Assembly: GCA_042218235.1 (NCBI GenBank) | Contig: JBDGRI010000023.1 | Coordinates: 1 to 54,058, forward strand | From: Candidatus Pacearchaeota archaeon | GTDB taxonomy: Archaea; Nanobdellota; Nanobdellia; Pacearchaeales; GW2011-AR1 | Reading direction: 5' to 3' | DNA length: 54,058 nt | Shown here: in pieces, positions 1,558 to 32,584 of the stretch | Layout of the letters: every line of letters begins with the position of its first letter | Position numbering within the stretch: the stretch's first letter is position 1 | Program-made: the position numbers and the translations under genes | The notes under the pieces: model-generated | The model's input: the letters and a program-made list of their open reading frames with translations, nothing else | What the model was told of the DNA's origin: nothing | Database searches by the model: none

Positions 1558-2319
1558 TTAATTGTCTGTTTTGAGATTTTCCTTTAGAGACTTCTCTAAA
1601 GCATTTATTTTTGCTTTCTTTATGGGTTCAAATTGTTCTTTTGTTGCATAGTTGTTTATGAAAGTTGAATTTCCTAGTCCGTAGACACCTTTCCCATTCA
1701 ATTTTCTAATTCCACTCATGTCGCAATTTTCGAATTTAGCGCCTTCTTCTCCAAAATCAACAACTTCTCCAAAATATGCTGGAAGGAACTCGTCGTCTTT
1801 AAAAGTAGAATTGCCTAGATAAGAATCACAAAATGAGCAATCATGATAGTCATTGAGTCGAGATTTTAATCCCCTCATGTTCCTCGATTCAAGACTTACA
1901 TTGAAAAATTTTGACGATATTATATCAGAATTCTCCATACTGGTTCTTTCCGGAGGATTTTTTATACTCCCTATTCTAGACATATCGCCCCAAAAATTAC
2001 AGCGACTCGCCAAAACACTATATATAATACATCCTTTAAGAGACGCTTTATGAAAGTCGTTTTTATACATTTCGGAATTAAACATCTTCATTCCATTTAA
2101 GTACATACCGCTCCAATCAAAATGATAGATTCTAGAGTTGCTAATTTGGATAGGATTTTCTGAGTTCTTCAGTTTTTCTTGAAGTTCTTCGAATCCTTCG
2201 TGTTCGTTTACTTTGAAATCTTCTTCCAGCTTTATGTTATCAAATTCTCTTTCTCCATCTATGAGTTTTTTAACGAACTCATTTCCCGGCATGTAAATTT
2301 TTCTCTCTGCCATTTTCAC
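1558..2319 (-). CDS. hypothetical protein, possibly pentapeptide-repeat-like
   Basis: 253-aa ORF. The central and C-terminal parts show a loose 5-residue periodicity (e.g. KASLKGCIIYSVLASRCNFWGDMS). Confidence 0.4.
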   Translation of the reverse strand: MKMAERKIYMPGNEFVKKLIDGEREFDNIKLEEDFKVNEHEGFEELQEKLKNSENPIQISNSRIYHFDWSGMYLNGMKMFNSEMYKNDFHKASLKGCIIYSVLASRCNFWGDMSRIGSIKNPPERTSMENSDIISSKFFNVSLESRNMRGLKSRLNDYHDCSFCDSYLGNSTFKDDEFLPAYFGEVVDFGEEGAKFENCDMSGIRKLNGKGVYGLGNSTFINNYATKEQFEPIKKAKINALEKSLKENLKTDN

Positions 2320-8269: not shown

Positions 8270-8533
8270 CTGTAGGCCAGACCGGCGTGCTAGCCCTACG
8301 CTGTCCGCAAATGGGCTATATGGCGGGTCGCAAAGGGAGGCGTGATAAGTCTGCTAGGAAACCCCTTTCCTCTTGTCGACGTCCTGTCTGCCTTGATGCC
8401 ACTTATGTGAACCGGGTCAGACCTTGATCGGAGCAGCCCTAAGCATATGTTGGCATGTTTGGCAGGTCGCAGGAAAGAGAGAGGTTTGGGACCACTTCCT
8501 GGCAGACTTTGAGCAACTCCCCTGGCCTGCTTT
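8270..8533 (+). ncRNA. ffs: signal recognition particle RNA (archaeal 7S/SRP RNA)
   Basis: GC-rich island in AT-rich DNA. A terminal helix pairs GUAGGCCAG (8272..8280) with CUGGCCUGC (8522..8530). A helix-5 segment pairs AAGUCUGCUAGG with CCUGGCAGACUU. Alu-domain loops are complementary (UAGCCC/GGGCUA). A helix-8-like motif reads GGGUCAGACC...GGAGCAGCCC. A TATA-like CTTTTAAG lies about 24 nt upstream. End coordinates are approximate. Confidence 0.75.
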
Positions 8534-11792: not shown

Positions 11793-12119
11793 ATGGCTAA
11801 AAGTAAAAGCAAAAGTTCTTCAAAGAAGAGCTCTTCTAAGAAAGAGACTTCAAAGAAGAAGCAATCTACAGCTGCTAAGAAACATCCAACAAGACAAGGG
11901 TTTGAAGCAGCAAAACAGATTTCTCCTATCGGAGTGATTGTTAGCTTCTTGGCTTGGTTGACAGGTGTAATCGTTTCTCTGGCTATCGGTTTTGGTATGA
12001 TAGACAGAGTTTTAACAATAACTTGGGTTCCAGCAGGAATAACAGTATTCTTCGGTTGGGTAGTTGTTATAACAACAATTCTAGGAGTTATCTTTGCAAT
12101 CGCAAAACAATTTGAATAA
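11793..12119 (+). CDS. small membrane protein with a Lys/Ser-rich N-terminal tail
   Basis: 108 aa with a basic K/S tail, two predicted TM helices and a strong SD. Confidence 0.55.
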   Translation: MAKSKSKSSSKKSSSKKETSKKKQSTAAKKHPTRQGFEAAKQISPIGVIVSFLAWLTGVIVSLAIGFGMIDRVLTITWVPAGITVFFGWVVVITTILGVIFAIAKQFE

Positions 12120-12151
12120 TTTTTTATTTGATCTATTTCTATTTTTTAATT

Positions 12152-12670
12152 TTATAGAAAAGACGTCTGAGCGGAATATTTGTTATCGGCTTTTCTATGG
12201 ATGGAGGTCACTTTATGTCCAATGTGGCTAGATCTCATTCTTGTTCCGTTTTTTTGGTATGTTCTTGTGTCATAAGGCTGGAATCCTATTCTTGGGTCTT
12301 TGGCTACAGGGATATAAAAATCAAGTTCCTTGTTTTTAACAAAAGACAACAGTGTAGGCCCTTGGTTTAAATGTATTTCCATGTTGTTCCTCAAAATTTT
12401 GCCTTCAGAATCGTTTATGTATGTTCTCCCTGGTTTGCTGTGAATGTATTCGAGAAATATTTGATTCATTTCCTCTTCATTATTTCCAAGTGTTTTGGTT
12501 ATGTCGGTGTTTATATTCTCCTGAAACCATTCGTAATTAGGAATAAAAACTATCGCGTCTGATGGATCCTTGGTTTCGTTTTCTATTTTCTTGAACCTTT
12601 GTGTTTTCCAGTTTGGAAGATATTTGTAAACCGATCCTTTTCCCGTTTCAAAGTGGTCTATATTGTCCAT
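12152..12670 (-). CDS. hypothetical protein
   Basis: 172-aa ORF with no motif recognised. Confidence 0.45.
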   Translation of the reverse strand: MDNIDHFETGKGSVYKYLPNWKTQRFKKIENETKDPSDAIVFIPNYEWFQENINTDITKTLGNNEEEMNQIFLEYIHSKPGRTYINDSEGKILRNNMEIHLNQGPTLLSFVKNKELDFYIPVAKDPRIGFQPYDTRTYQKNGTRMRSSHIGHKVTSIHRKADNKYSAQTSFL

Positions 12671-12701
12671 ACCAAGAGGCTTCTATTAGGATTTTTAATT
12701 T

Positions 12702-13529
12702 TTATTCTTTTAGATTTTTAACGGCCTCATTGAAAATTTTTTCTAGATCTCTTCTTAAAATGTTTTTCCAGTTGACATTCTTTTTGTCTTTTAGGTATTC
12801 TGAGACTAAGTGATAACCTAGGGTATAACCTGTCCAAAAAGGGAATTCTTTATCCTGGTTGAAGAAGATTTTTATGTGGTATTTGAATCCTTTTTTCTCT
12901 AAGTAGGGACTTACTTTTCTGAGGTATTCTTTTGTTTTGCTTTTTGGAAAAACTTTTGTCCAGGGGTTTCGTTTCTTTCGGAAAACGTGTTCTTTGAATT
13001 TTTCGGCTAACCCCTCCGCTATAATGTTTCCTTTTACCTTGAGCGGATTTTTAGAAAACATCGAGTAATTTTTTGATAATGCATGAGCTAATTCATGAGC
13101 TACTATGTCTTTTAATGCCTTTTTCCAGTTTTTGGCTATTGTTGGCTGGATGATTATGTGTTTTCGGTGTGGTGTTAGGCCCATAACCCCTTCCATGTAG
13201 TCTTTTACGAACTTGTTTTTTTCGGGAATTATATAGACATAGATTTTTTCTTTTCCTATCACATTTGAGAGGTCTTTTAATGCTTCTGAAACGATTTTTT
13301 CCGCTTCATCGGGTTCAGGCTTTTCGAGAATTGTTTTTCTTTTTCCTTTAGAGAACCAATGATTCATAAAGGTCTTTAGATATTCCCTTTTCTTGAATCC
13401 AAAATATCCTTCTTCCGTTTTTGGAATTTCTCCTATAATGTATTCTTTAACTTTGTCTATGTCTTTTGAAGGACAATCTAGGAAGTTGTAGATTTCCGCT
13501 TTAGGGTTTTTTAGAGTTTTTTGTCTCAT
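12702..13529 (-). CDS. HExxH zinc-metalloprotease-like protein (DUF2268-like), paralog of 28025..28849
   Basis: 275 aa with the HELAH motif. Its C-terminal WTGYTLGYHLVSEYLK matches WTGYSIGYHLIKEYLK in the paralog. Confidence 0.55.
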   Translation of the reverse strand: MRQKTLKNPKAEIYNFLDCPSKDIDKVKEYIIGEIPKTEEGYFGFKKREYLKTFMNHWFSKGKRKTILEKPEPDEAEKIVSEALKDLSNVIGKEKIYVYIIPEKNKFVKDYMEGVMGLTPHRKHIIIQPTIAKNWKKALKDIVAHELAHALSKNYSMFSKNPLKVKGNIIAEGLAEKFKEHVFRKKRNPWTKVFPKSKTKEYLRKVSPYLEKKGFKYHIKIFFNQDKEFPFWTGYTLGYHLVSEYLKDKKNVNWKNILRRDLEKIFNEAVKNLKE

Positions 13530-13530
13530 C

Positions 13531-13728
13531 CTATTTCCTAATCTTCTTAATGAAAGCTAAGAAAAGGAAAAGTGCAGAGAATCCTATGAACCATGCCCAG
13601 TGAACATTAACTACCTCTTGGCCAATTTGGGGCCAAATTGTAATCATAAAAAGGACAAAAGACATTGAGGCAAGATTGGTAAAAATGGAATTCGTTACAG
13701 TTTCGGCAGTCGGATCATTTTTTGCCAT
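13531..13728 (-). CDS. small membrane protein
   Basis: 65 aa with two hydrophobic helices, 1 nt downstream of the preceding gene. Confidence 0.45.
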   Translation of the reverse strand: MAKNDPTAETVTNSIFTNLASMSFVLFMITIWPQIGQEVVNVHWAWFIGFSALFLFLAFIKKIRK

Positions 13729-13790
13729 CAGACAATTATGTTTTTTGTGTTTTAAATAGCTTTTTATAGTTCACTTTATTTAATTTATCA

Positions 13791-14204
13791 ATGCCTGAAA
13801 ATAAAAAGCAGAAGCATAAGTTAATTGCTAACGGATATATTGTAAATGCTGATAAGTTTTTGGTTGTTAGAAGGTCTGAGGAGTCTGGCGGAGCGGGAAC
13901 TTGGGAGTTTCCAGGAGGACATATAGAGTTTGGAGAACATCCTGATAATGCTGTCGTGAGAGAGGTAAAGGAAGAGACAGGTTTGGATTTAAAGCCTAAG
14001 TATGTTTACAGGATTTTTAGTAAGGAATACGAGAAAGAAGACAAAAAAGTACATAAGATAAGAATTGTTTATTATTTTGAAACTTCTGAAGATAAAGTCA
14101 AACTAGATCCGCGAGAGCACGATGATTATAGGTGGCTTTCAAAAGATGAATTGGAAGGCTTTTTGATTGGTAAGCATGTTAAGCGGTGTGTTTTTGGGAG
14201 GTAG
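13791..14204 (+). CDS. NUDIX hydrolase
   Basis: Nudix box GGHIEFGEHPDNAVVREVKEETGL. Confidence 0.8.
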   Translation: MPENKKQKHKLIANGYIVNADKFLVVRRSEESGGAGTWEFPGGHIEFGEHPDNAVVREVKEETGLDLKPKYVYRIFSKEYEKEDKKVHKIRIVYYFETSEDKVKLDPREHDDYRWLSKDELEGFLIGKHVKRCVFGR

Positions 14205-21170: not shown

Positions 21171-22142
21171 CTAATCCCCATGACTATAACTAATTTTTTC
21201 CAAAGCGGGTTTAGTTGGATCGTGTTTATTGTAGAATTGCTTTCGCTCTTCTATCTTTGTAACGTATGGGTCATCAGGATCTCCATTCGCACTACTGCCT
21301 TGGTTGTATCTTTCAATTGCCTCGTCCCAGGTTCCATGCCTTCTCTTTAGAGTCGAGAGGAATTTTCCAGCAGCTTTAATGCTTTCTTCTGGGTCGAACC
21401 TTTCATCCATTTCAGATAATTTTTTGTAGTCGTGGTTGTATTCCTCTACAAGATTTGACAGTCTCTTTCCATGAGCCGAGTCTTTTCCAGTACTATACGA
21501 ATCTCCTCTTACATCTAAGTCATATGCCCTACCAGTTCCAGGTTGGAATTGACCGAGGCCTACGCCCCCATCGGGACTTACAGCCGTTACTCTTCCACCT
21601 GACTCTTGCATAATTATCGCTTTAAGTGTTCCCGTAGGAATATTGTACTTATTCTCTACCTTATCAAGTTGATCGTCCCACCTATAAGTCCTTTGGAATT
21701 TGCCCAGTTGGGTCCAAGCCGGCATTGTTACCTTTATTTCTTTATTCTCATTGGGTCTTAATAATTCATCAACAATAAAGTTTTCTTGGTAAGGAGTGAC
21801 TTGTTCTATATTGTTCTTATCTTTACTAAATTCTGAATTTTCTGCAGTTGAACTTGTGCCGATATATTGAGGAGCAAACGCACCCCAAAGAGGAATTAAT
21901 ATCTGCAAAGCGGTCTTCGTGGGAATCATAAATTTTTTTAGAGGGTCCAATCCTGGAATTTTCCAAGATTTATTGCTAGAGGATTCATTTTGAATTTTTC
22001 TTTTGGAACCTAGATAAACTTGATTTTTTAGATTCGTGTGTTTCAACATACGCCTAGCTATTTTAGAACCGTAAAGGAAATCCTGGAGCATATTTTTAGA
22101 AGATTCTCCTTCACCTCTTAATTTCCCGACGAGATTTTTCAT
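21171..22142 (-). CDS. SLT-domain lytic transglycosylase-like protein
   Basis: 323 aa with one TM segment. Motifs are IMQESGG (catalytic Glu-Ser), GLGQFQPGT and RYNQG. Confidence 0.7.
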   Translation of the reverse strand: MKNLVGKLRGEGESSKNMLQDFLYGSKIARRMLKHTNLKNQVYLGSKRKIQNESSSNKSWKIPGLDPLKKFMIPTKTALQILIPLWGAFAPQYIGTSSTAENSEFSKDKNNIEQVTPYQENFIVDELLRPNENKEIKVTMPAWTQLGKFQRTYRWDDQLDKVENKYNIPTGTLKAIIMQESGGRVTAVSPDGGVGLGQFQPGTGRAYDLDVRGDSYSTGKDSAHGKRLSNLVEEYNHDYKKLSEMDERFDPEESIKAAGKFLSTLKRRHGTWDEAIERYNQGSSANGDPDDPYVTKIEERKQFYNKHDPTKPALEKISYSHGD

Positions 22143-22213: not shown

Positions 22214-22723
22214 CTATCTTCTTATTATTTCGTGAGAATCAAGATATCTGGGTTGTGTTTGTTCAGGTTCTATTTGTTCCGAAATTGTTATTGAAGCATG
22301 CATTTTGTCTTTTTCGGGCTTGCCCCAGTATTCAGAGATTCTAATGGCCTGGGGGTCGCCCGCCATTAATTCAGCGTTTTCGTCTGTTAAGTTCTTGGAT
22401 TGATAGCTTATTCTTTTTCCGTCGGCATTGTAGTCTTGAGATTTGATTATGTTAGTTCGGCTTCCATCAAAGTAATAGAAAGGTGCCTCTTCTGAATCTT
22501 TAGGATTTCCAAAATTTTCTTTCAACATGTTTTCAAGTTGGTTTAATCCTTCATCTTCAAGGTTCTTTATTACCCATTCATATTTTATTTGAGATATGTC
22601 CGCTGGTTCTTTTTTTAGAAAGGCTTCATGGTTTTTCCCGTTTAGATTGAATCCTATTAAAGGATTATAGTTGTCTCCTTCACCTTCTTCAAATCCTGGT
22701 AGGTGGTTGTATTCGTTGTTCAT
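22214..22723 (-). CDS. hypothetical protein
   Basis: 169 aa. Its start overlaps the upstream SLT gene by 4 nt. Confidence 0.5.
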   Translation of the reverse strand: MNNEYNHLPGFEEGEGDNYNPLIGFNLNGKNHEAFLKKEPADISQIKYEWVIKNLEDEGLNQLENMLKENFGNPKDSEEAPFYYFDGSRTNIIKSQDYNADGKRISYQSKNLTDENAELMAGDPQAIRISEYWGKPEKDKMHASITISEQIEPEQTQPRYLDSHEIIRR

Positions 22724-23682
22724 TTTATGTTTTCTTTATAGTATTCTCTGAATTTTTGGAATCTTCTCACATGAGATGTTTCTGAAGGTTTTTCTGCAGG
22801 AGAACCCAAATTATAGGCTGAAACTGCTTCCTTCAGTCCCCCGTATCTGTCAATAAGGGTTTCCATATATTTTGCAGCCGCATCGGAGCTTTTTACAACA
22901 TGGAATCTTTCATCAACTTTTGCAAGGTCTTTGTATTGATATCCATGTTCTTCGCATATCTTTCTCAGTGATTTTGCATGGTTAGTATCTGCCCCCATAG
23001 CATTAGATTCTCCTCTAACGTCTAGACCATATGCTCTTGCTGTTCCTGGCTGAAATTGATATAGTCCAGCACCCCCATCTCCGGGAGTGTTTAACTGTAC
23101 AGGATTTCCATGAGATTCTGTCATGGCTAAAGGTCCTAGAGTATGTCTCGGTATGTCGTACTCTCTCTCAAATTTCTGGTAAATATCTTTAAATCTTCTT
23201 GCTCTCTGAAATTTCCCTTCCATTGAAAGTCTAGAGGAGTTTATTCCTTCGAAGGTCTTTTCTTTTCCTTTTTCTTTGTCAGGATTTGGCCTTTCCTTTT
23301 TTTCAGAAATTTTTTCAGAAGGATTGAAATCATTATAGATATTTGAAACTTCATTTGAGAGTCCTGATGCTCCAGTTATAATTGTTGCTCCCAAAAGTGC
23401 TGTTGATATAGCATTTGTGGCTGCGGGCCTCCATTTTTCTGAAGCTTTATTTCTTAGCCCATTGATTTTTTCTGAAGCCTTTGAGACCAGGCCTTTTTGG
23501 TTTGCCGCGTATATTCCAATTGAGCTGGCACCGAAGGTTAATAGCTGTAAGGGTTCTGAGAAATCTTGAGAGGCTACATATTCAGATGATCCGAATGCTC
23601 CATTAACCGCTCCTATATTTATTGCAAATTTTGCCGCTCCTTCTGTTACTTTGTCTAAAAGACTCTTTCCTGCTTTTGCCAT
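22720..23682 (-). CDS. SLT-domain lytic transglycosylase-like protein (paralog)
   Basis: 320 aa with AMTESHGN, GLYQFQPGTARAYGLDVRG and AYNLG motifs. Confidence 0.7.
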   Translation of the reverse strand: MAKAGKSLLDKVTEGAAKFAINIGAVNGAFGSSEYVASQDFSEPLQLLTFGASSIGIYAANQKGLVSKASEKINGLRNKASEKWRPAATNAISTALLGATIITGASGLSNEVSNIYNDFNPSEKISEKKERPNPDKEKGKEKTFEGINSSRLSMEGKFQRARRFKDIYQKFEREYDIPRHTLGPLAMTESHGNPVQLNTPGDGGAGLYQFQPGTARAYGLDVRGESNAMGADTNHAKSLRKICEEHGYQYKDLAKVDERFHVVKSSDAAAKYMETLIDRYGGLKEAVSAYNLGSPAEKPSETSHVRRFQKFREYYKENIK

Positions 23683-27731: not shown

Positions 27732-28041
27732 AAGAGTTCAAAGAGGGGAGAAAGTTATCGAGGTTAGGCTTTATGACGAGCAAAGGCAGAAAGTTGAAAT
27801 TGGGGACGAAATTGAAATTCTTAATTATCATAATCGGGAAGAGAGTGTTTTGGTTGAGGTTATCGGCCTTTCGAGGTTTAGGAATTTTTATGATTTGTAT
27901 TCTGCTTTTGACCCGAGTAAGTTTGGGCATACCGAGGGAACTAAGCCTGAAGAACAAGCAGAAAATGACAGGCAGCATTATTCAAGAGAAGATGAAGAAA
28001 AGTATGGAGTTTTAGGAATTCATATTAGGTTGAAGGGTTAG
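27694..28041 (+). CDS. ASCH domain protein
   Basis: 115 aa with PF..V..GEKVIEVRLYDEQRQKVEIGDEIEI, typical of ASCH. Confidence 0.6.
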   Translation: MKHQMKLVKDPFRRVQRGEKVIEVRLYDEQRQKVEIGDEIEILNYHNREESVLVEVIGLSRFRNFYDLYSAFDPSKFGHTEGTKPEEQAENDRQHYSREDEEKYGVLGIHIRLKG

Positions 28042-28849
28042 TTATTAGGATTTCTTTAAGGATTTCTTTTGGATCCTTTTTGATAATCTCATCCCATGTT
28101 AAATCTACTTTCTTCAAATATTCTTTTATTAGATGATATCCAATTGAATACCCTGTCCATAAAGGATATTTCCCAGTTCCATAGAAAACTTTCCCATGTT
28201 CTTCGAAATCTTCACTGTCTAATATTTCCTTTAGTTCTTCAAAATATTTTTGTGCACTTTCTTTGTTTATTGCATTCCCTAAATGACTTTTTTCTCCAGT
28301 AATATGTTCTACGAAGTTTTCTGCGATTCCATCAAAAATAATTTGTTCTCCTATCGACATTTCGTTTATGTTATAGAAAGGGGATAGGGCATGAGTCGCT
28401 TCATGTATTAAAGATTTTTTCATTGATTCTTCCCAGTTTTCTGAAGGGAACATGTGTAAAATTATGGTTTTTTTGAAAGTGCAAAATCCTGAAATGCCAT
28501 CAAGTTTGTCTTTTACAAATTTGGAAGTAGTCGGGAATATAAATATATTTAGGCTTTCCATCGGTATAGAATCTTTTATCTTTCTCAAAGTTTTTCTTAC
28601 AGAATCCGATATTTTTGTTTCCATATTGCCTTCATTTGGAAACTGTTTTTCCGCATCGTTGTTAACAAAATTTAGATGAAATTCCAATGCTTCTTTTTCT
28701 TTCCAACCTGCAAACCCGGAATCTGTATTTGGGCAGTCCTTAGATGCTTCTTTAGCAAATTTCTTGCTTGGTAGACGGTTAGATTTGTCCAAGAATAGAT
28801 AGAGTTCTGCTAAGGTATTTTCGTCATTCTTGATTATTTCTTTTTTCAT
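28025..28849 (-). CDS. HExxH zinc-metalloprotease-like protein (DUF2268-like), last gene of the YcaO operon
   Basis: 274 aa with HEATH and a WTGYSIGYHL tail. Its start overlaps the SagB-like gene by 4 nt. Confidence 0.55.
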   Translation of the reverse strand: MKKEIIKNDENTLAELYLFLDKSNRLPSKKFAKEASKDCPNTDSGFAGWKEKEALEFHLNFVNNDAEKQFPNEGNMETKISDSVRKTLRKIKDSIPMESLNIFIFPTTSKFVKDKLDGISGFCTFKKTIILHMFPSENWEESMKKSLIHEATHALSPFYNINEMSIGEQIIFDGIAENFVEHITGEKSHLGNAINKESAQKYFEELKEILDSEDFEEHGKVFYGTGKYPLWTGYSIGYHLIKEYLKKVDLTWDEIIKKDPKEILKEILITNPST

Positions 28850-29556
28850 TGTTTTTTTCCTAAACCAATTACATATAAAGGAATTTCGTTTTCAGTCAAG
28901 TCAAGTATTTCTGAGACTTTGTCGTTTACATATCCTCCAATTGGGCAGGTCCCTATGTTTTCTCTCTCAGAAGAAAGGATTATATTTTGGCCCATATGTC
29001 CGGCTTCAATTAAAGAAAAGGGATACGCTTTTGCACCATATTTGACTTCTGATCGAGGTATTGCGGATGTTAAAACAATGGCTGCTGCGGGGTTTTCTAA
29101 AGCAGAGATTATTGATTCTTTTTCCTTATCTAGATTCTCTTCTAATAGTGTTTCAAGAGTGTTGTCTAATATATTGTAATGGTATGCTCCTTTTTCGATA
29201 CCTTCAACATTGAAATTGGTCACATATGTCTCTATGGGAAATCTTGCTCCTGCAGAAGGATACGACCTTCTCTCGGGATCTCTATTGTAATCGTTTATCC
29301 TACAAGAATGCAGTATATTTGAAAGCTGTTGGTAACTCATAGGGTCTTTTGAGAACGATCTTATCGATTCTCTTTGGGAAGTTAGTTCTTCAAATTTGTC
29401 CAAATAATTACGAGGCTTTAATTTCCGGGAGGGTAACCTAGGATATGTCTTATGAAATACTTTTACGTATTCTATGGGTGCTTCTTCATTACTGTCGATC
29501 TCCAACTTTTCTTTAAGCTTTGTTTTTTTATAGAAGTTTTTCGTATCTTTTCTCAT
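28846..29556 (-). CDS. SagB-type (nitroreductase-fold) dehydrogenase
   Basis: 236 aa with RESIRSF, RSYPSAGARFPIETYV, AYHYN, IEAGHMGQN and PIGGY. This pattern is typical of azoline oxidases. Confidence 0.7.
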   Translation of the reverse strand: MRKDTKNFYKKTKLKEKLEIDSNEEAPIEYVKVFHKTYPRLPSRKLKPRNYLDKFEELTSQRESIRSFSKDPMSYQQLSNILHSCRINDYNRDPERRSYPSAGARFPIETYVTNFNVEGIEKGAYHYNILDNTLETLLEENLDKEKESIISALENPAAAIVLTSAIPRSEVKYGAKAYPFSLIEAGHMGQNIILSSERENIGTCPIGGYVNDKVSEILDLTENEIPLYVIGLGKKQ

Positions 29557-29557
29557 T

Positions 29558-30802
29558 TTAAGTCATAGGGTGAGGTTTTAGGTTTTTTTCTTTTATTTCT
29601 CCGTAGTGTTTGCTATACAGATATTTTGCATTTTCGTCTAAATATAATGGATGTAGTTCGGGTATGATTACTTTTTTTACCTCTATCCCTTCCTTTTCCA
29701 TTTCAGGGAGAGAAATGTCTGCTTCGAAAACATGGAACCCTCTCTTGTCTAAACTATTTACAATTTCATCTATTCCAATCGGTTTTTTATTTAATTTTTT
29801 ATAGTTTATTTTTTTGGTTGATCCTAGCCAAAAAGGCAAATCGTTTTTTCTTTCGTTGCCGAACCAATAAAAGAACCTATTATCTAAAGAGTTTATTTCA
29901 TTTTCTTTTGGCAGCCTTTCCGGACATTCTATCTCTTTGAGTATTCTGCCTGTTCTTCTGCATTGTATAGATTCCATGATTGATCTTTCTATCGCGTCTT
30001 TATAGTTGAGATCGGCATCTGAGCCTACATTTATTGCTTGCCCCATATTTGATTTGTCGACTGTTACGGTTAATGCTGTAGGAATCTCCAAATCAGAGGT
30101 TGCATCAAACACGTAAGGTTCAAGCTGATATCTTTCCAAGTATTCTTTTGTTTTTTCTATATTTTTAGGAAGGTTCTCTATTAAAGGCAACTCTTTTGCT
30201 TGTAGGTACGCCCCTATGCATGAATCTCTTTCAATAGATTCAAGTAGTCCTTCTTTTCTTGCCCTTCCAGTTCCTTTGAAACCTAATGCTGTACCCGTAG
30301 TTATTCTTTCAAGTCTTATTGGAAATTCTTTGTTAAATTCAGGATTAATATAAATCAATTGTGCCGGCAGGTTTACTTCTTCTCCAGTAGACAAATTCTT
30401 TGCTGGATACCACCGATAAATTTCGTTATCGGCTTTATTTTCAAACTCCTCAATATTTATTTGTTCACTTGAATAGTTCCTGAATAAAGAAGGCCTAACA
30501 TCTTTTCCCGGGTTAAACTTACGCGGTTTGCTAAGGTACTCTTTTTGAGGATTTTCTATGGCCAATCTTTCAAGATATTCTCCATAGGCTTTAACCTTTG
30601 CGCTTTGAGAGTTCTTAGAAATACCTTGTCCATGGACTTCATTTGTTCTGTACTTTTCTTTATCGTTTTCTCCAGAAAAAACTAGGTATTGAGGATATTT
30701 TGGTTCGTCGGTAATTATTATTGTTTCCTCAGGATTAGTCCCTAATCCGGTTTTTTCAAACTTTCTTAAAGCTTCATTTAATCTCATAGGGCACCCTATC
30801 AC
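29558..30802 (-). CDS. YcaO-domain cyclodehydratase
   Basis: 414 aa with GQGISKNSQSAKVKAYGEYLERL, TTGTALGF, ESIERDS, and D.TSDLEIPT. The likely true start is ATG 30787, preceded by the SD GGAGGTGA. Confidence 0.75.
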   Translation of the reverse strand: MIGCPMRLNEALRKFEKTGLGTNPEETIIITDEPKYPQYLVFSGENDKEKYRTNEVHGQGISKNSQSAKVKAYGEYLERLAIENPQKEYLSKPRKFNPGKDVRPSLFRNYSSEQINIEEFENKADNEIYRWYPAKNLSTGEEVNLPAQLIYINPEFNKEFPIRLERITTGTALGFKGTGRARKEGLLESIERDSCIGAYLQAKELPLIENLPKNIEKTKEYLERYQLEPYVFDATSDLEIPTALTVTVDKSNMGQAINVGSDADLNYKDAIERSIMESIQCRRTGRILKEIECPERLPKENEINSLDNRFFYWFGNERKNDLPFWLGSTKKINYKKLNKKPIGIDEIVNSLDKRGFHVFEADISLPEMEKEGIEVKKVIIPELHPLYLDENAKYLYSKHYGEIKEKNLKPHPMT

Positions 30803-31089
30803 CTCCAGGGTTCTTCAGTTAAATCAGAAATCTCTTTTCTACGTCTTCTATTTGGATTTGAGTTAGATGCACTATGGCCACTATTTCCTATAGGTTGGTA
30901 GATCCCTGGTCTTGATCCGCTTTTGCTTTGAGACCCGCTATTACTTTGGCTTTGGGAACTTGATTGACAAGGTCCAGAAGAACCTACTAAAGGGTTATAT
31001 AGGTTAGAACGATTAGTGAGATTATACGGCGCGTTTTCAACTACGCCCTCCATTTCAAGGACTTTTTCCCTATATTTTTCCGCCTCCAT
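30799..31089 (-). CDS. Ser/Gly/Gln-rich small protein, candidate RiPP precursor
   Basis: 96 aa with the central tract GSSGPCQSSSQSQSNSGSQSKSGS. Its stop overlaps the YcaO ORF, and it is the first gene after the TATA box. Confidence 0.5.
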   Translation of the reverse strand: MEAEKYREKVLEMEGVVENAPYNLTNRSNLYNPLVGSSGPCQSSSQSQSNSGSQSKSGSRPGIYQPIGNSGHSASNSNPNRRRRKEISDLTEEPWR

Positions 31090-31113
31090 CTTACTATGTC
31101 TATGTTCCCAGGT

Positions 31114-31123
31114 TATTTAAATC
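31114..31123 (-). promoter_or_regulatory. TATA-like box for the YcaO operon
   Basis: On the minus strand, GATTTAAATA lies 25-33 nt upstream of the ATG at 31089. Confidence 0.4.
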
Positions 31124-31147: not shown

Positions 31148-31948
31148 CTAACCCAATTTCTCCAAAGCTTTAATGCCTTTTTCGGAGTCTCCTACTAAAT
31201 CGGGAGATTCGCAGGCTATTGTTACATTTTTTTCTTCGGGAATGTTTTTTAGGAGGTCTTCCCATTGGCCGTCTTCTAGGTTTTTGTGGTGTTTTTCTCC
31301 TTTGTCTCCGTAGACAATTCCTGAAAAGTGGACGTGCCAGTCTTTCCATGGGAAGAGTTTTGCGATTTTTTGATAATCTACTTTGCCTTCTCTTGCGAGT
31401 AAATGTGCGAAGTCTATACAGAAACTGCAGCCTGTGTCTTTCACTAATTGAGATATTTCTTCCGGGGAGCCGAAAATGTTTATTTTTCCCATTACTTCGG
31501 GGGCTAGTTTTGTTGTCCAGCCTTGCTCTTTTCTTTTTTCTTCCATTTCGGCTACGGCTTTTTTGACGTTCTCGTAAGCTTTTTTCTTTCCTTCTTCAGA
31601 CTTGTCTTTGCCATAATATCCGGGATGGAAAACTACTTTTGTAGCTCCTAGTTCATGGCCTCTTTCAATGCATCTTAGGATTCTTTGTTTGCTTGCTTCG
31701 ATAGTTTGTTTTTTGTCGGAGTTTAGGTTTACGAAGTATGGGGCGTGAATTGTTAAGTTAATTCCAAGTTCTTTTGCTCTTTTTCCGATTTCTTTGGCAT
31801 CTTCCGGGTCTTTTATGTAAACTTGGTAAGTAAAGGCTAGTTCGCACTCTGTAAGGCCCTCTTCGTGATATTGCTCCAAAACACTCTCCGCATTCTGAAC
31901 TGGACCCAATCCTGCTGGACCTATTTTAATGTCTCTTTTTTTGCTCAT
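31148..31948 (-). CDS. endonuclease IV-like (AP endonuclease family 2, TIM barrel) protein
   Basis: 266 aa with HAPYFVNLNS, KVVFHPGYYG and DFAHL metal-ligand-like motifs. Confidence 0.6.
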   Translation of the reverse strand: MSKKRDIKIGPAGLGPVQNAESVLEQYHEEGLTECELAFTYQVYIKDPEDAKEIGKRAKELGINLTIHAPYFVNLNSDKKQTIEASKQRILRCIERGHELGATKVVFHPGYYGKDKSEEGKKKAYENVKKAVAEMEEKRKEQGWTTKLAPEVMGKINIFGSPEEISQLVKDTGCSFCIDFAHLLAREGKVDYQKIAKLFPWKDWHVHFSGIVYGDKGEKHHKNLEDGQWEDLLKNIPEEKNVTIACESPDLVGDSEKGIKALEKLG

Positions 31949-31978
31949 ACTTAATTAGAATTTTCGGAGTTTTTAAGT

Positions 31979-32584
31979 TTAATTTTTACAACGAAAATTG
32001 AGGTAAGCATGATTTTCGTCCATTTTTGTTTTTGAAGACTTTATTATTTCGAAGAATCTTGATAGGATATTTTCTATCTCTTCTTTTTGGTACAGGGAAA
32101 AATATCTTTCGTTTCCTTCAAACTCGGAATTTTGCTTAAAGCCTTCGAAATTCCCTTCTTTCATAGTAATGTAGAATAAGCCTTCCGGTTTTAGGATTTC
32201 TCTTATTTGTTTTAATGTTTCTGGAAGTTTTTCTTTTGGCATATGGAGGAGCGAGGTTCTTGACCAGACTCCGTCGAAAGAGTTTTCTTTGAAATCCAGG
32301 TTTTCAAAATCCATTTGTTGGGATTTTAGGCCTTTTTCTTTACAAATTTTGACCATTGATTGTGAAATGTCTATGCAGGTAGGATTCAACCTTTGTTCTT
32401 TCATTTTTAGAGAGTCATTTCCCGGTCCGCTCCCTAAATCCAAAACTTCTTTTCCGTTTAGGTTTTTGCAGAAGTATTCAAAATCTTCTTTTAGGTAGTT
32501 TTCTACGAAGTTTTCGTCCTTTATTTCTTCATATTCTCTGGCGTAGTTGTCGTAAGTTTCTTTTGTTTTTTCTTTGTACTCCAT
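31979..32584 (-). CDS. class I SAM-dependent methyltransferase
   Basis: 201 aa with motif I VLDLGSGPGND. Confidence 0.7.
   Translation of the reverse strand: MEYKEKTKETYDNYAREYEEIKDENFVENYLKEDFEYFCKNLNGKEVLDLGSGPGNDSLKMKEQRLNPTCIDISQSMVKICKEKGLKSQQMDFENLDFKENSFDGVWSRTSLLHMPKEKLPETLKQIREILKPEGLFYITMKEGNFEGFKQNSEFEGNERYFSLYQKEEIENILSRFFEIIKSSKTKMDENHAYLNFRCKN

Follow-up and report, generated by a model that had tools for sequence, protein, structure and literature searches.

A 54,058-nt stretch of contig JBDGRI010000023.1 from a Candidatus Pacearchaeota archaeon was analyzed for a small YcaO-containing gene cluster; the whole 54-kb stretch is here called the window, and our view of this genome ends at its borders. 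The cluster consists of four tightly packed open reading frames (ORFs) that run in the same direction on the minus strand, in the order precursor peptide, YcaO, SagB-type dehydrogenase and DUF2268 protease (A-D-B-protease). An original prediction, made from the letters of the window, had placed these ORFs at 30799-31089, 29558-30802, 28846-29556 and 28025-28849. It had also left 1 nt between the YcaO and SagB genes and let the SagB gene share 4 nt with that of the protease; we found all of this as described. The first ORF (30799..31089, -) encodes a 96-aa precursor peptide, and homologous small ORFs adjoin YcaO in nearly all related loci. The second encodes a stand-alone YcaO protein (PF02624), the third (28846..29556, -) a 236-aa SagB-type dehydrogenase dependent on flavin mononucleotide (FMN), which corresponds to a B protein (TIGR03605, PF00881), and the fourth (28025..28849, -) a 274-aa DUF2268 HExxH zincin (PF10026). 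The 4-nt overlap that had also been described between precursor and YcaO did not hold. YcaO can be read as 414 aa from GTG 30802 or as 409 aa from ATG 30787, and the ATG is most likely the true start (29558..30787, -) because the database gene call begins there, the N-termini of homologues align there, and a GGAGG at 30806-30802 precedes it. The precursor and YcaO are therefore separated by a spacer of about 11 nt.

The TATA-like box that had been proposed ahead of the cluster is real and reads TTTAAATA (31113..31120, -); the element was read directly from the sequence, and its promoter role is suggested by the consensus alone. It sits within a 58-nt intergenic gap, which is bounded by the stop codon of the upstream gene at 31148-31150, and lies at 31120-31113 about 25-30 nt 5' of the precursor ATG. 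This distance implies that the operon transcript would be leaderless or near-leaderless.

The family assignments of the two enzymes and the protease, which had been made from the translations, were borne out by profile searches. YcaO matches PF02624 with 138 bits (E 5.7e-40), and TIGR03604 (SagD of the thiazole/oxazole-modified microcins, TOMMs) is the top YcaO subfamily model for 28/28 family members, with a best family E-value of 1.7e-68 vs 3.4e-29 for the McrA-thioamidation model. The ATP/Mg2+ motifs E70-x-x-E73-R74 and E183-x-x-E186-R187-D188 are invariant in the family, and the C-terminus is conserved as L-K-P-H-P-[LF]-T, with P405, H406 and P407 present in at least 90% of members. In an AlphaFold2 (AF2) model (pLDDT 96.7), the protein forms one compact YcaO fold with no extra domain. 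The model has a TM score of about 0.7 to the YcaO domains of LynD and MusD and to MjYcaO, MkYcaO and McbD (TMq 0.66 to McbD, TMt 0.74 to MjYcaO). We rejected the idea that an N-terminal TDEPK motif is a novel docking module, as it aligns to a general YcaO N-terminal motif (LDKVNIP in MjYcaO). We predict that this protein is an ATP-dependent cyclodehydratase (D protein).

The SagB-type protein scores 100.7 bits on TIGR03605, above the cutoff of 78.4, and 75 bits on PF00881. Its invariant residues include the FMN-site motif R97-x-Y-P-S-x-G-x-R-x-P-x-E and the pair K172-Y173, a Lys-Tyr motif which Melby et al. reportedly found in 2014 to be catalytic in SagB-type dehydrogenases. The top structural matches of its AF2 model (pLDDT 92.9) are the thiazoline oxidase BmdC, McbC (TMq 0.79, full length) and ThcOx, all of which are azoline oxidases. 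The N-terminal 53 aa of the model form one helix and an extended arm, and not the winged helix of a RiPP recognition element (RRE; RiPP, a peptide made by the ribosome and then modified post-translationally). The protease scores 108.9 bits on PF10026. Its HExxH residues (H149, E150, H153) and E177 form a gluzincin-like site that is invariant in 13 cluster-linked homologues, and no solved relative of DUF2268 was found by sequence.

Relatives of the cluster were compared to see which genes travel together. The window YcaO has 127 database relatives of about 400-420 aa, at most 50% identical to it, which are named Pace-, Woese-, Aenigm- and Nanoarchaeota. With our own ORF calling, phmmer and all-vs-all clustering, 29 non-redundant loci were analyzed. 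These span Woese-, Pace-, Aenigmat-, Nano-, Parv-, Micr- and Iainarchaeota as well as the Candidate Phyla Radiation (CPR), Acidobacteriota and other bacterial metagenome-assembled genomes (MAGs). Only four gene families are conserved across the 29 neighborhoods. The YcaO and SagB genes are adjacent in 28/29 loci, and a small ORF stands beside YcaO in most of them, directly on its 5' side; in L016 and L017 it is found downstream of the operon, 3' of the DUF2268 gene. The protease differs by locus: DUF2268 is found in 13/29, an HExxH family of about 211 aa in seven, and an M16 peptidase in two bacterial MAG loci (L032:7499-11735 and L035:1451-5459), where this insulinase-type enzyme takes the place of DUF2268. 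The HExxH motif of the 211-aa family is also invariant. Homology between this family and DUF2268 was considered and is unsupported, as the profile-profile alignment covers the zinc-binding helix alone (probability 2.6%). The protease family thus swaps between clades, which would fit recruited leader peptidases, and DUF2268 is predicted to act as the leader and possibly also the tail peptidase.

A further recurrent element is the precursor. The 96-aa peptide of the window has no Pfam or NCBIfam match, and all database entries of its family are named 'hypothetical protein'. It consists of a leader, MEAEKYREKVLEMEGVVENAPY, followed by Ser-rich stretches and then an acidic tail. The leader stretch around E18, A20, P21 and Y22 reads KVLEMEGVVENAPYNL, and in the related loci the small ORFs share the leader LLE[LM]SS[VI]IENAPY, ahead of a hypervariable core rich in Ser, Cys, Gly and Asn. 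E18, A20 and Y22, i.e., the E, A and Y of I-E-N-A-P-Y, are invariant in a 15-locus alignment. When 1.84 billion representatives were searched exhaustively with HMMER, 64 divergent precursor representatives of 53-117 aa were returned, and two more from an indexed search gave the set of 66 sequences on which our precursor statistics are based. Their leader logo is [LIV]L[ER][LIM]S[SPA][VI]IENAPY[LV][LIV]. The Cys/Ser/Thr-rich segment begins at a median of 12 residues past the leader motif and has a median length of 23 aa; it is 51% Cys/Ser/Thr, and the medians for Ser and Cys are 8 and 1. The acidic C-terminal tail ...LE[DE]K[VL] is only semi-conserved and occurs in 29/66 of the precursors. Distant archaeal and bacterial members carry the leader-motif variants IESAAY, IDAAPN, LDDAPE and IADAREF; at L035, two tandem precursors have Pro/Cys-rich cores and the 'IADAREF'-type motif. 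The small ORF is thus kept in the relatives, and its sequence pattern suggests a RiPP precursor family with a conserved leader and a hypervariable core.

Some precursors appear to hold two cores (P0272, P0288 and probably that of the window), with ...[AV]G before each core and Arg after it. In the window peptide, the two Ser-rich cores would probably be SSGPCQSSSQSQSNSGSQSKSGS, between LVG and R, and NSGHSASNSNPN, between PIG and RRRRK. This arrangement recalls the multi-core precursors of cyanobactins, and the window peptide, which at 96 aa is unusually long, fits the pattern.

Most YcaO cyclodehydratases require an E1-like or Ocin-ThiF partner with an RRE of about 90 residues, and partner-independent azoline-forming YcaOs exist but are rare (PMC5589413). 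The original prediction had stated that the window holds no such partner, and this agrees with our scans, in which 40 larger ORFs compared to Pfam and 10 Pfam-negative ones compared to NCBIfam gave no match to ThiF/E1-like, SagC, Ocin-ThiF, cyclodehydratase or TfuA families. Likewise, the 29 neighborhoods share no conserved E1-like, Ocin-ThiF, RRE or TfuA gene. No E1-like or RRE protein was found in the flanks of distant and bacterial members, which contain ABC exporters, a LuxR regulator, a GNAT protein and a Mur-ligase-like gene. A fused partner is also absent: the YcaO homologues are all about 400-420 aa and the SagB homologues all about 230-250 aa, and these uniform lengths therefore argue that there are no fusions. 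None of the relatives' loci links YcaO to TfuA, to methyl-coenzyme M reductase (MCR) or to a ribosomal target. Since YcaO and SagB are the sole universally co-conserved proteins, the element that reads the leader most likely lies in one of the two, and synteny together with the fold suggests that YcaO is independent of a partner.

Collectively, we consider it fairly probable that the four genes form a self-contained minimal RiPP cassette of the linear azol(in)e-containing peptide (LAP)/TOMM type, with the order A-D-B-protease and RRE-independent leader recognition, i.e., 'McbC+McbD without McbB' in terms of the microcin B17 enzymes. The RiPP and azole part of this reading is more secure than the part on partner independence. 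An azoline/azole product had been proposed from the gene content, and that interpretation is largely supported by the YcaO, the above-cutoff SagB, the conserved-leader precursor and the lack of a partner.

In the pathway that we propose, a TATA-driven operon transcript would be translated to give the 96-aa precursor. The leader core [LIV]L[ER][LIM]S[SPA][VI]-I-E-N-A-P-Y would then dock directly on YcaO and/or the SagB-like enzyme, with no need for an RRE-bearing E1-like or Ocin-ThiF helper. YcaO and ATP would cyclodehydrate core Ser and the rarer Cys to oxazolines and thiazolines in the Ser/Gly/Asn-rich cores, and the FMN dehydrogenase might, via its Lys-Tyr motif, oxidize these to oxazoles and thiazoles. 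The DUF2268 zincin would remove the leader, probably past the conserved ...[AV]G junction, and may also cut the Arg-flanked C-terminal tail. One or two short polyazole peptides would result, and these may serve in competition or host interaction.

Several observations weigh against this reading, and they concern the chemistry, the partner and the purpose of the cassette in turn. The azole chemistry is a prediction. The window YcaO reaches 138 bits on TIGR03604, under the trusted cutoff of 219, and its family is a divergent clade. Its C-terminal motif P-H-P-x-T is PxP plus Thr and not the full PxPxP, which Dunbar et al. reportedly described in 2014 as the mark of azoline-forming YcaOs; when the last 60 aa were compared to the PDB with phmmer to assess this motif, the matches were chance ones only. 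Additionally, the YcaO profile is as close to the thioamidase MjYcaO (66-68 bits) as to the azoline-forming MusD (65-72 bits), and among PDB entries MjYcaO ranks first or second by sequence. Cys is absent from 14/66 cores, and while cyclodehydration of Ser only is known, it is less common.

YcaO might perform another chemistry on the peptide, such as thioamidation (MjYcaO), amidine formation (bottromycin, streptamidine) or ATP-dependent peptide cleavage (reported for MusD), and the nitroreductase-fold enzyme would then catalyze an oxidation different from that of azolines to azoles. Besides the equidistant profile, the TM score of about 0.7 to both MjYcaO and MusD, the score below the TIGR03604 cutoff and the cores without Cys, this would agree with the acidic C-terminal tail, which recalls follower-peptide recognition by stand-alone YcaOs. 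However, TIGR03604 outranks the thioamidation model in all 28 members tested, and on the latter (TIGR03266) the window YcaO reaches 53 bits against a cutoff of 365. The obligately linked SagB lies above its curated cutoff, with an invariant Lys-Tyr and with azoline oxidases as its nearest structures. The cores are half Cys/Ser/Thr, and neither TfuA nor sulfur-transfer genes were seen in the window scans or the related neighborhoods. We thus find it quite unlikely that the chemistry is of another kind.

As to the partner, canonical LAP YcaOs are nearly inactive without one, so a helper encoded in trans is conceivable. In 2/29 loci, L001 and L014, ThiF genes are found less than 6 kb from the cassette (3.6-5.7 kb). 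The cassette might belong to a canonical LAP system and draw on an E1-like, Ocin-ThiF or stand-alone RRE partner from another part of the genome, as would be expected from the requirement of most azoline-forming YcaOs for such a partner (PMC5589413). The restriction to 54 kb of the genome and the 16 window ORFs without a family assignment leave room for this. However, no third family is conserved in the 29 neighborhoods, which come from at least seven archaeal phyla and several bacterial phyla. We rejected the ThiF genes of L001 and L014 as hidden partners, since both lie on the strand opposite to the cassette, clustering did not group them as orthologues, and one is part of a ThiF+Prok-JAB module. 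YcaO and SagB are the only genes with which the leader motif co-travels. Further, the cassette has evidently moved as an A-D-B unit among DPANN archaea, CPR and other bacteria, and this is hard to square with an unlinked specific partner. A partner acting in trans is therefore unlikely in our view.

The remaining points concern whether the cassette makes a natural product at all. The archaeal loci share no conserved exporter or immunity gene. Additionally, the window contains a second DUF2268 zincin of 275 aa (12702-13529, -), 31% identical to the cluster copy over its full length, and this copy is unlinked to YcaO or a peptide gene, with just a 65-aa membrane ORF upstream. Together with the reduced host genome, the lack of conserved exporter and immunity genes and the unlinked paralogue would suit an explanation in which the small Ser-rich protein is cellular, e.g., a low-complexity or surface protein, in which YcaO and SagB modify it or a housekeeping target, and in which DUF2268 is a general protease. 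Against this stand the conserved leader, the hypervariable core, the multi-core variants and the clade-specific proteases, all of which are hallmarks of RiPP precursors, and also the ABC exporters of the bacterial variants. We regard a cellular role of this kind as very improbable.

Among the closest known systems to the proposed minimal LAP cassette is the microcin B17 synthetase McbBCD, the LAP archetype from E. coli. Both have a discrete minimal YcaO of about 400 aa (McbD) and a discrete SagB-type dehydrogenase (McbC), an N-terminal leader with a Gly/Ser/Cys-rich core, and a separate metalloprotease for leader removal, which is a predicted role in the DPANN cassette. Unlike microcin B17, the DPANN cassette lacks an E1/RRE scaffold like McbB, either fused or in cis, has the leader family IENAPY, carries DUF2268 or another zincin and not TldD/E, lacks export and immunity genes of the McbEFG type, and resides in archaeal hosts.

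Partner-less YcaOs are also found in other systems. The bottromycin YcaOs (BotC/BotCD, PurCD) and TfxE of trifolitoxin and the tiarins likewise have no adjacent E1-like or Ocin-ThiF partner (PMC4603692; preprint 10.64898/2025.12.02.691738). Bottromycin was the stand-alone D-protein example in a survey of TOMMs, and BotC has been proposed as its thiazoline maker (PMC4603692). However, bottromycin has a C-terminal follower, a single thiazoline with a macroamidine, and no SagB partner, whereas the main conserved element of the DPANN cassette is an N-terminal leader, and its poly-Ser/Cys cores suggest many heterocycles. For trifolitoxin and the tiarins, the RREs are carried by the TfxB/TfxC dehydrogenase pair (preprint 10.64898/2025.12.02.691738). 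A tiarin-type architecture was rejected for the window, as there is a single short SagB-like enzyme without an RRE and the precursor motif differs from that of the tiarins, which have a conserved core Gln.

Among archaea, haloazolisin has a fused cyclodehydratase with a barely recognizable C domain, and thermoacidophisin has discrete C proteins (Cox et al. 2015, PMC4603692). These are YcaO-based clusters as well, and haloazolisin precursors share the Ser-rich cores; in contrast, the DPANN family has neither a C domain nor a C protein and is absent from the 2015 survey (PMC4603692). The YcaOs of Methanocaldococcus jannaschii and Methanopyrus kandleri (MjYcaO and MkYcaO) resemble the DPANN enzyme in being archaeal, minimal (about 380 aa) and partner-less, and in binding their peptide substrate directly. 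They differ in that they catalyze TfuA-independent thioamidation of an McrA glycine and have neither a SagB neighbor nor a dedicated precursor, and TIGR03266 ranks far below the TOMM model for the DPANN YcaO family.

In the literature that was searched, we found no description linking DPANN archaea, Woesearchaeota or Pacearchaeota with YcaO/SagB, nor DUF2268 with RiPPs. The supplementary table of a survey of archaeal biosynthetic gene clusters does list a 'LAP' region that antiSMASH called in a Pacearchaeales genome. Such clusters have thus already been flagged automatically without being analyzed, and neither RiPP gene clusters in DPANN nor partner-independent YcaOs are unprecedented. What appears to be undescribed is the widespread partner-less LAP-like family, together with its precursor family and associated proteases. 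Few archaeal RiPP products have been characterized, as a recent survey points out (PMC12144867).

The genomes of DPANN archaea are drastically reduced, and the cells live attached to hosts. To our knowledge, essentially nothing has been reported on their chemical ecology and natural products, and the cassette would, if our reading is true, be among the first defined natural-product pathways in this group. It also defines a new, previously unannotated precursor family and would link the uncharacterized DUF2268 zincins to RiPP maturation. If two enzymes suffice, they would represent a natural minimal system for installing azoles without an RRE scaffold, which would help to explain how YcaOs can recognize substrates alone and provide a compact tool for peptide engineering. 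With its three or four small genes, the cassette is suited to heterologous co-expression. A bolder version of the idea, to which we give a little less than even confidence, is that YcaO and the short SagB constitute a complete RRE-independent polyazole synthetase and the smallest known LAP machinery, which reads IENAPY, a new leader signature, directly on the catalytic enzymes. As a module of three or four genes, it would have spread among ultra-small DPANN archaea as well as CPR and other bacteria, making hypervariable Ser-derived poly-oxazole peptides for interactions between episymbiont and host or with competitors.

Individual loci add to the picture of how the cassette is distributed. At L006:5268-7516 (CAZJVK010000002.1, labelled Saccharibacteria), a CPR-type contig with TypA/BipA and EngB as neighbors holds a precursor with IENAPY and a YcaO that shares 49% identity with the archaeal one, and this implies inter-domain transfer of the cassette between DPANN and CPR. 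A bacterial, Acidobacteriota-like variant occurs at L026:6628-13407, L037:4007-8717 and L038:2161-8741. The order here is ABC exporter, Mur-ligase-like gene, YcaO (about 402 aa), precursor, a shorter second YcaO (about 360 aa) and SagB, and no E1 or RRE partner was seen in these three loci. In the Acidobacteriota MAG locus L019:593-7554 (JBEKYG010000187.1), precursor, YcaO and SagB are flanked by P22-coat-like and Mu-F-like phage genes, suggesting that this copy is carried on a phage or prophage. A phage origin of the cassette as such was rejected, as a search of IMG/VR gave just one weak (25%) YcaO match. In the Aenigmatarchaeota locus L014:5029-9450, 11971-13896, the cassette is flanked by the ThiF+Prok-JAB (ubiquitin-like) module and by a radical SAM protein that has an HMPTM zinc ribbon; in other loci, neither is conserved with the cassette.

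The assignment of the window to an archaeal host, which had been suggested earlier, is supported by its protein markers, i.e., diphthine synthase (dph5; 165 bits, above cutoff), archaeal RNase HII, DTD2 and three TrmB regulators. The closest relatives of its YcaO and SagB are also from DPANN lineages. The signal recognition particle (SRP) RNA at 8273-8529 (+) has Bacteria_large_SRP as its best Rfam model (78 bits), despite the archaeal protein markers.

Directly upstream of the cassette on the same strand, an AP-endonuclease-2/xylose-isomerase-fold protein and a class I SAM methyltransferase are encoded at 31148-32584 (-). These genes were rejected as parts of the cassette, as they are not conserved with it in relatives, and they are probably unrelated to it, with read-through transcription being possible. 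At a distance of 26 kb from the cassette, an ORF at 1558-2319 (-) resembles Qnr/pentapeptide-repeat proteins faintly and without significance (E 0.007, 16 bits); immunity to microcin B17 is conferred by pentapeptide-repeat proteins. Lastly, two paralogous proteins with SLT (lytic transglycosylase) domains are encoded at 21171-22142 (-) and 22720-23682 (-), and these may be relevant to contact with murein-containing neighbors or hosts.

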